Sequence record: PV648359 | Strand: one strand, 5' to 3' | DNA length: 64,000 nt | Source of the DNA: Escherichia phage LF82-1 | In this document: piece after piece, positions 1-1,467 of the stretch | Layout: each line of letters begins with the position of its first letter | Numbering within the stretch: the first letter of the stretch is position 1 | The notes under the pieces: model-generated | The model's input: the letters and a program-made list of their open reading frames with translations, nothing else | Database searches by the model: none | Told to the model about the DNA's origin: nothing | Position numbers and translations under genes: made by a program

Positions 1-751
1 GATAGTACTCAGTTTTAGTTGGATTAAAAATTCGAATCAGCGCTTCTTCAGGATACTTATTTCTGTCGAAACTATTATTTGGATCAGTTATATAAAGCGG
101 TTGACCTAATTGAATTGCGCATTCAACCACTTGTTCAAAACGATAGCATGGGTCACTAATTCGAAATGGATGAAAAATACCATCTAGATGAATAGGAGCC
201 AAATCACCTACAAGACGCTGCATGACGGAAGGACGTATAACTTTCTGCGTTACGATAATCTTATTACCATCTGCACCTGCGTTAACCAGCACTTCTTTTT
301 GACGTTCATTCAACACAGTAGTTTGAAGTGAACGATTAACAGACAACATGTCGGTTTTTAAGAATTCATCAATATAAAAACGTGGTTTATTAGGGTCTGC
401 AGTGATATTGAAATTGAATTCTACGTCAAAAGCGCCATCATATCCAGTGATATCTGTGATTAGAAAATCACAATCATAATAAGCAATTAATGAATCAACC
501 ACAAATTCATTTTCAGACCAGAAATATTTACGAGTGTTATACGCGTTATCTTTATACCATAATGGAACAAACTTAAATTCTGGGAAAAGACGTTCACATT
601 CTTTAATATCAGATGCATTACGTGGATATGTAATCACATCACCTGGATTAGCACGGTGCAAATGAAGTTGGAAGTTGCCATCCTTAAGGATAGCATACTG
701 TCCAGTTTCATAAGACCGCATACTCAAGATAGGTACGCGGAAAATAGCCAT
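1..751 (-). CDS. Hypothetical protein, C-terminus cut by window edge; occupies the T4 beta-gt position downstream of gene 42
   Basis: ATG at 751-749 overlaps gene 42 stop (TAATG); first 67 codons translated by hand are open (MAIFRVPILSMRSYETGQYAILKDG...); rest not checked codon by codon; not in ORF track, presumably because it runs off the window. Confidence 0.45.
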   Translation of the reverse strand, partial: MAIFRVPILSMRSYETGQYAILKDGNFQLHLHRANPGDVITYPRNASDIKECERLFPEFKFVPLWYKDNAYNTRKYFWSENEFVVDSLIAYYDCDFLITDITGYDGAFDVEFNFNITADPNKPRFYIDEFLKTDMLSVNRSLQTTVLNERQKEVLVNAGADGNKIIVTQKVIRPSVMQRLVGDLAPIHLDGIFHPFRISDPCYRFEQVVECAIQLGQPLYITDPNNSFDRNKYPEEALIRIFNPTKTEYY

Positions 752-1467
752 TAGTCAAGGAATCCTTTAACATAATCAAAATCACGTTCAAACACATGGG
801 CACTTACCATGGTATGAGTATAATCACCAACTTCTACACCACATTCGTTAGCGATATAATGAAGTAATTTTCCTTGGAGATAAAAATCCAACTGCATAAC
901 AACAGCACAGTTCTGAGAACGCATATGACAGTGGGTATAAAGCTTACCATCGCGAATATAATAAGTCACTGAGTCAGTACATGGATATTCAAGTGTTTCG
1001 TCCGAATCAAGCAAAGCCTGATCAGAACTTTCTAGAATTTGGAACACAACTCTTCGAGAGTTAGGTTTCTCTTTAAGTTCTTTTAGAAGAGCTGGTAATT
1101 GGGCCGCAATGCGAGGACCATAGAAAGTGTTGAAGTTCGCCGGCAAAGCGTCTGATTTAGGTTTAGAAATAAATTTAGCGACATTAGGATATGCCTTAAA
1201 CGCTTCTTCTGCATCAGTACCACCAGAAATCATAAACTTCCAGAAGTCTTCGGCATATTCATAAGAGATGCGGTTAATACGTGGGTCGGTCATTTTGAAT
1301 GATGATGGATTGTCAACAACTACTGTCATGGACCCGATTTCATTACAACGTCCAATACGAGAATCAGTTACGAATTCAGGATTTTCTAAAATTTCACGAT
1401 TGACTGCTTTAAATGCGGCTTGAAAATCTGCGGCTTTGATATATTTCATTGTGTTATGTTTTCCCAT
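751..1467 (-). CDS. 42: Thymidylate-synthase-family dCMP hydroxymethylase (gene 42-like)
   Basis: 238 aa; TS/dCH core motifs NSRRVVFQI, catalytic YPCTDS, IRDGKL, MRSQN, Asp at the cytosine-specificity position; syntenic with T4 gene 42. Confidence 0.75.
   Translation of the reverse strand: MGKHNTMKYIKAADFQAAFKAVNREILENPEFVTDSRIGRCNEIGSMTVVVDNPSSFKMTDPRINRISYEYAEDFWKFMISGGTDAEEAFKAYPNVAKFISKPKSDALPANFNTFYGPRIAAQLPALLKELKEKPNSRRVVFQILESSDQALLDSDETLEYPCTDSVTYYIRDGKLYTHCHMRSQNCAVVMQLDFYLQGKLLHYIANECGVEVGDYTHTMVSAHVFERDFDYVKGFLD

Follow-up and report, generated by a model that had tools for sequence, protein, structure and literature searches.

Predicted 5-hydroxy-dCMP synthase and glycosyltransferase genes at the gene 42 locus of an RB69-like coliphage

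Genes at the locus

The window analysed here is the whole stretch of 64,000 nucleotides from Escherichia phage LF82-1 (record PV648359). Over its first 3 kb it shows 100% identity to Escherichia phage LF82-2 and 98% to Shigella phage Shf125875 and further phages of the RB69 type, and, judged by this identity, its source is an RB69-like coliphage (Mosigvirus). The matching region of LF82-2 is referred to as L001, a window position being the L001 position minus 6000. The gene order in LF82-2 is gp43, a six-gene cassette, the thymidylate synthase (TS)-family gene, the transferase ORF, a 'thymidylate kinase' gene, uvsX, gp40 and gp41, and the T4 counterpart stretch (L002) runs gp43, imm.1, imm, 42, b-gt, segA and uvsX. 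The features at the start of the window are as follows.

1..751, minus strand: predicted GT-B glycosyltransferase (by fold and synteny), first 250 of 299 codons; homologue of RB69 ORF046c+047c
751..1467, minus strand: 5-hydroxy-dCMP synthase, 238 aa, at the T4 gene 42 position; assigned by PF00303 and near-identity to RB69 gp48
1473..1510, minus strand: candidate T4-type middle promoter and ribosome-binding site of the synthase gene, read by eye
1510..1749, minus strand: 79-aa ORF between the U32 and synthase genes; homologue of RB69 ORF049c (PHROG 8601, 'unknown function')
1746..2906, minus strand: U32 'peptidase'-family protein, homologue of RB69 gp50 (PF01136, E 7e-11; weak UbiU match)
2963..3364, minus strand: HAD-type sugar-phosphate phosphatase, RB69 gp51, analogue of AfhF of phage HY126 (TIGR01689, E 1.9e-13)
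3349..5034, minus strand: bifunctional sugar-1-phosphate nucleotidyltransferase and kinase, RB69 gp52:53, AfhE analogue (PF00483 in the N-terminal part)
5076..5219, minus strand: 47-aa very hydrophobic ORF at the RB69 ORF054c position, between the isomerase and nucleotidyltransferase genes
5216..5851, minus strand: SIS-domain arabinose-5-phosphate isomerase, RB69 gp55 (PF01380; LF82-2 annotation; Table 1 of PMC13326640)

TIGR01689 denotes a capsule biosynthesis phosphatase, and the product of 3349..5034 has kinase-like matches at its C-terminus together with NCBIfam uridylyltransferase matches. The roles of the phosphatase and of the nucleotidyltransferase/kinase are those assigned in PMC13326640, where the HY126 counterpart of the latter is reported to make UDP-arabinose. 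The 79-aa ORF is present only in some Mosigvirus-like loci. In T4 the interval between genes 43 and 42 holds imm and imm.1 (L002:8374-9014), whereas in the LF82-1-type phage it is filled by the arabinose cassette and the homologues of imm and imm.1 (64% and 32% identical) are located close to dmd and sp (L001:906-1584). The GC content is flat at 0.34-0.40 over the whole module and no foreign-island signal is seen in its composition, so a recent exchange of the module is unsupported.

The sequence upstream of the synthase gene contains AGCTTTA (1510-1504), a spacer of 11 nt, TATAAT (1492-1487) and GAGG (1476-1473). AGCTTTA, which we take to resemble the MotA-box consensus with one mismatch, and the TATAAT hexamer may form a MotA-dependent-like middle promoter, with GAGG as the likely ribosome-binding site. 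A generic scan for sigma-70 promoters and terminators gave a result no better than that for shuffled sequence.

The product of 751..1467 matches the Pfam family Thymidylat_synt (PF00303, E 2.4e-15), and PDB thymidylate synthases and MilA are among its other matches. It shares 236 of 238 residues (99%) with RB69 gp48 (ORF048c) and is 98% identical to PDB entries 9iqc, 9ir2 and 9iqu, the first of which is the crystallised phage homologue, the enzyme of phage HY126. Its identity to T4 gp42 is 25% over 218 aa, whereas gp43 (61%), gp62 (74%), gp44 (78%), gp45 (79%), gp46 (83%), gp47 (76%), uvsX (68%) and gp41 (85%) are much closer to their T4 counterparts. The pairwise identities thus bear out the preliminary description, which had described the TS homologue as far more diverged from T4 than its neighbours are (25% vs 61-85%). 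A three-way alignment (A2) gives 27% identity to T4 gp42 and 23% to E. coli ThyA. The reading of the protein as a diverged gp42 orthologue was rejected, since it stands about equally far from gp42 and from the bacterial ThyA and its chemistry differs.

The same alignment places Cys163 at ThyA C146, Glu160 at ThyA L143 and the dCMP-specifying Asp194 at ThyA N177 (N177D). With the PF00303 match, Cys163 and Asp194, the TS-family catalytic core is kept, as had been proposed. The residue at the ThyA Asp169 position is Asn186 (D169N), within the motif RSQN; the corresponding motif is RSND in T4 gp42 and RSCD in ThyA. An Asn at ThyA-169 has been proposed to be diagnostic of 5-hydroxy-dCMP synthases (Lee et al., NAR 2026, PMC13326640). 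RB69 gp48 was shown by experiment to convert dCMP to 5-hydroxy-dCMP with oxygen derived from 18O2, in a flavin/O2-dependent reaction, and flavin co-purifies with the enzyme (PMC13326640). The modification of RB69 DNA is beta-D-Araf-(1-3)-alpha-D-Araf-5-hydroxy-dC (PMC13326640). On the strength of its near-identity to gp48, for which the flavin/O2 chemistry was shown, the gene at 751..1467 is assigned to a 5-hydroxy-dCMP synthase, a TS-fold, flavin/O2-dependent dCMP C5-hydroxylase. The label 'dCMP hydroxymethylase', under which the gene had been described, is ruled out by the product of its 99% identical RB69 homologue and by the Asn at ThyA-169.

The transferase ORF and its predicted fold

The TAA stop of the synthase gene (753-751) overlaps the ATG of the next ORF (751-749) on the minus strand, just as the preliminary description had read, and the transferase gene is translationally coupled to the synthase gene. 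The full ORF, retrieved from LF82-2, has 299 codons (L001:5852-6751), the C-terminal 49 of which lie beyond the window start; since the ORF leaves the window at position 1, the window covers residues 1-250. It occupies the position of b-gt in T4, between gene 42 and uvsX; its identity to RB69 ORF046c+047c is 98.7%, and it belongs to PHROG 3891 ('unknown function').

Sequence comparisons connect this ORF with no glycosyltransferase. Searches of Pfam, NCBIfam and the PDB (phmmer and profile) gave no match, even with a profile of 78 sequences, and neither the NTP_transferase domain PF00483 nor membership by sequence of a curated glycosyltransferase family (e.g. Pfam Glycos_transf_1/GT4) was found. 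BLASTP against T4 b-gt gave no detectable similarity, close structural similarity to b-gt was not found either, and hhalign gave probabilities below 1% against T4 a-gt and RB69 gp3 (0.3% for the latter). The window as a whole contains no protein that could convincingly be called a homologue of T4 a-gt or b-gt. The predicted structure, on the other hand, consists of two Rossmann-like domains in a GT-B arrangement and resembles solved GT-B enzymes, scoring 16.7 with BshA, 15.7 with PimA, 14.4 with the HY126 glycosyltransferase 9iqz (a homologue of RB69 gp3, not of this ORF) and 13.2 with T4 alpha-GT. The family has an invariant R197, K246 and H270-P271-G272 after strands of the C-terminal domain, which may correspond to the donor-binding residues of GT-B enzymes (Arg/Lys for the diphosphate, an acidic residue or His at a helix N-terminus). 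The earlier statement that the ORF has no obvious glucosyltransferase features therefore holds for the sequence and fails for the modelled fold, which also agrees with the suggestion that the ORF is a candidate transferase.

The homologue RB69 gp46:47 has been put forward as the predicted alpha-arabinosyltransferase 1, and for Shewanella phage Thanatos mono-arabinosylated DNA is reported, together with only one arabinose transferase, which is syntenic with RB69 gp46:47 (PMC13326640). The Thanatos protein TH1_063 (L006:25460-26362) is 48% identical to the ORF studied here. Against a transferase role stand the purified DLP3 homologue gp79, with which neither UDP-Araf nor UDP-Arap led to arabinosylation of 5hoC-DNA (PMC13326640), the reported formation of UDP-xylose by TH1_063 and the missing sequence link to glycosyltransferase families. 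Taken together with the published prediction, the fold, the synteny and the gene fusions make a glycosyltransferase the most likely product of the ORF.

The module in other phages

Scanning IMG/VR with a profile yielded 56 loci. In 45 of 52 loci the gene immediately upstream of the transferase is a TS homologue, and the MRSxN (D169N) signature is present in 50 of 51 TS homologues. A Tmk-like kinase gene follows the transferase directly in 33 of 53 loci and is part of the cluster in 44 of 53. The LF82-2 region has such a thymidylate-kinase-like gene at L001:5302-5850, directly after the transferase and just outside the window start, and the kinase also occurs in Thanatos (44% identical) and in metagenomic phages. 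The NAR 2026 paper (PMC13326640) gives it no role.

In one metagenomic clade a Flavodoxin_2 gene of the NAD(P)H-dependent flavin reductase type adjoins the D169N-type TS gene, directly upstream of it in most cases (L003:605-1123, L005:6739-7293, L037-L051 and L059); the LF82-1 cluster has no such gene. This adjacency fits the need of the hydroxylase for reduced flavin, and the Flavodoxin_2 product is plausibly its supplier.

A profile search of 1.84 billion representatives recovered 231 relatives of the transferase. Eight of these representatives are fusions of a HAD phosphatase with the transferase, which tie the transferase to the sugar pathway. Others are fusions of the transferase with the kinase, in the order transferase-kinase in P0230, P0232, P0256, P0258 and probably P0227 (where the P-loop motif was recognised by eye only) and in the reverse order in P0233. 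The contigs that encode P0230 and P0227 are so short that they show no neighbouring genes.

The synthase, the transferase and the cassette that lies between genes 43 and 42 are one conserved modification module, which recurs as a unit in other phages and does not look like a recent import. The earlier proposal of an hmC module exchanged as a unit is correct in that there is one module and it recurs as such; the modification is arabinosyl-5-hydroxycytosine and not hmC, and the flat GC content shows no sign of recent exchange.

The U32 protein of the cassette recurs in a different setting. Its phage family has ten invariant Cys residues, including a CX4CX3CX2C motif, and the window protein is probably an iron-sulfur protein. 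In seven loci (L056, L058, L060, L066, L067, L068 and L069) a U32 homologue 47-52% identical to the window protein lies next to a distant homologue of the transferase (22-30% identity where the full domain was aligned). Several of these loci come from phages unlike T4, and a TS homologue was not detected in any of the seven within up to about 7 kb on each side of the locus; on the contig of P0258 (L066, 3.5 kb) the U32 homologue is the only neighbour seen. UbiU and UbiV are O2-independent hydroxylases. The U32 proteins RlhA and TrhP make 5-hydroxycytidine in 23S rRNA and 5-hydroxyuridine in tRNA, respectively (PMC5727448 and PMC6599085). The table entry for the phage U32 protein in PMC13326640 reads only 'sugar or heterocycle reductase', and a literature search returned no report linking U32 to phage DNA. 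Because of the chemistry of RlhA, TrhP, UbiU and UbiV and the position of U32 genes beside the transferase in loci where TS was not detected, the co-occurrence suggests that the U32 protein (1746-2906) may be an alternative, possibly O2-independent (anaerobic), pyrimidine C5-hydroxylase. Both candidate hydroxylases, TS-like and U32, are present in the LF82-1-type phage, which infects a gut facultative anaerobe.

Pathway, alternatives and known systems

The two genes at 1..751 and 751..1467 appear to form the central part of the pathway to arabinosyl-5-hydroxycytosine that has been published for RB69-like phages, including the role of the transferase in adding the first arabinose, and the probability of this reading is put at about 0.8. 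The synthase would hydroxylate dCMP at C5 with flavin and O2 to give 5-hydroxy-dCMP. The isomerase, kinase/uridylyltransferase and phosphatase of the cassette would make UDP-arabinofuranose, the likely donor, from which the GT-B transferase would most likely add the first, base-proximal alpha-D-arabinofuranose to the 5-hydroxyl. A second transferase encoded elsewhere in the genome, of the RB69 gp3 type, would then act on DNA to add the second arabinose. The first would by default also be placed on DNA, as the T4 analogy suggests; the authors of PMC13326640 state that they cannot distinguish a mononucleotide from DNA as the acceptor in this first step.

One alternative concerns this acceptor. 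The transferase may act before replication on 5-hydroxy-dCMP (or the diphosphate), the Tmk-like kinase may phosphorylate the product and the glycosylated dNTP may then be polymerised. The kinase gene that so often follows the transferase (33/53 loci directly, 44/53 in the cluster, besides Thanatos and the metagenomic phages) and the single proteins that join the two activities in both orders speak for this scheme, and so does a spare kinase: RB69 has a dNMP kinase of the T4 gp1 type that already handles 5-hydroxy-dCMP (PMC13326640), and a second kinase therefore needs another job. The inactivity of the DLP3 homologue on 5hoC-DNA (PMC13326640) points the same way, as does the acidity of the transferase family, which has a median pI of 5.25 vs 9.05 for T4 beta-GT, 6.1 for T4 alpha-GT and 6.3 for RB69 gp3. 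Fusions, spare kinase, negative DNA assay and acidic pI together make arabinosylation at the nucleotide level a serious alternative. However, every characterised phage DNA glycosyltransferase acts on DNA, the later arabinose additions take place on DNA in vitro (PMC13326640), and the synthase and the dNMP kinase alone suffice for the production and incorporation of 5-hydroxy-dCTP (PMC13326640); moreover, fusion and synteny indicate coupling rather than substrate, and the pI is a crude measure. On balance, nucleotide-level transfer is judged to be rather unlikely. A broader scheme, in which a nucleotide-level glycosylation unit is served by two interchangeable C5 hydroxylases, one TS-like and dependent on flavin and O2, the other an iron-sulfur U32 enzyme, a relative of RlhA, TrhP and UbiU/V, for which O2 might be dispensable, is slightly more doubtful still.

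Two further readings would change the identity of one of the enzymes. Thanatos TH1_063, given UTP and xylose-1-phosphate, produced a UDP-xylose peak in vitro (PMC12838424), and a protein 48% identical to it might likewise supply the activated sugar as a UDP-pentose pyrophosphorylase. The published activity conflicts with the fold, as the model is a two-domain GT-B structure and not a nucleotidyltransferase, and the cassette already has a true NTP_transferase-domain enzyme (3349-5034), the HY126 counterpart of which reportedly produces UDP-arabinose (PMC13326640). UDP-xylose could instead arise if a GT-B enzyme ran in reverse or catalysed a side reaction with UDP and a sugar-1-phosphate, and a pyrophosphorylase role for the ORF seems improbable. 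Least probable is a fast-evolving or exchanged dCMP hydroxymethylase that still makes hmC, which some accessory factor or transferase would decorate. It would accord with the TS-family core, its catalytic Cys and its dCMP-specifying Asp, and RB69 DNA was first reported, in 2018, to contain arabinosyl-hmC (PMC6024577). That assignment was corrected in later work, and the published chemistry refutes the reading: the 99% identical RB69 gp48 gives 5-hydroxy-dC, incorporates 18O from O2 and carries flavin (PMC13326640), and the window protein has the diagnostic change from Asp to Asn at position 169, where T4 gp42 keeps Asp.

The arabinosyl-5-hydroxycytosine system preferred here is already known, having been published in 2025-2026, and the window carries a near-identical copy of the RB69 module. 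The practical value of the finding is the correction of annotation. Most GenBank records call the hydroxylase a 'thymidylate synthase' or a 'dCMP hydroxymethylase'; for the transferase they give 'hypothetical protein', and for the HAD phosphatase 'phosphoheptose isomerase'. Annotation is behind the 2025-2026 literature. The data on fusions and co-occurrence make three points directly testable, namely which acceptor receives the first arabinose, what the second kinase does and what part the U32 protein plays. If true, replication from a glycosylated dNTP would be a novelty in phage DNA hypermodification, and an O2-independent route to 5-hydroxycytosine in DNA likewise.

Among known systems, the synthase is closest to RB69 gp48, DLP3 gp80 and the HY126 enzyme (PDB 9iqc), with which it has in common the genomic position and the Cys, Glu-143, Asn-169 and Asp-177 (ThyA numbering); it differs from gp48 and 9iqc by only two or four conservative substitutions and appears to be the same enzyme. 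With T4 gp42 it shares superfamily, fold, the place between gene 43 and the transferase, dCMP as substrate and the Asp at ThyA-177. In contrast, T4 gp42 has Asp at ThyA-169 and carries out folate-dependent hydroxymethylation, whereas the window enzyme has Asn and would carry out flavin/O2 hydroxylation. The second arabinosyltransferase, RB69 gp3 or the HY126 glycosyltransferase (PDB 9iqz), is encoded at another locus, next to rIIA and outside the window, and comparison with the transferase ORF detected no sequence relationship. In the RB69 reference record AY303349 the transferase (24597-25497, ORF046c/047c) is split by a frameshift and the nucleotidyltransferase-kinase (28094-29780, ORF052c/053c) is also split, whereas the former is intact in the window/LF82-2 version (299 aa) and the latter is intact in the window (3349-5034, 561 aa). 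The splits have been attributed to sequencing error (PMC13326640), and the intact ORFs of the window agree with that view.
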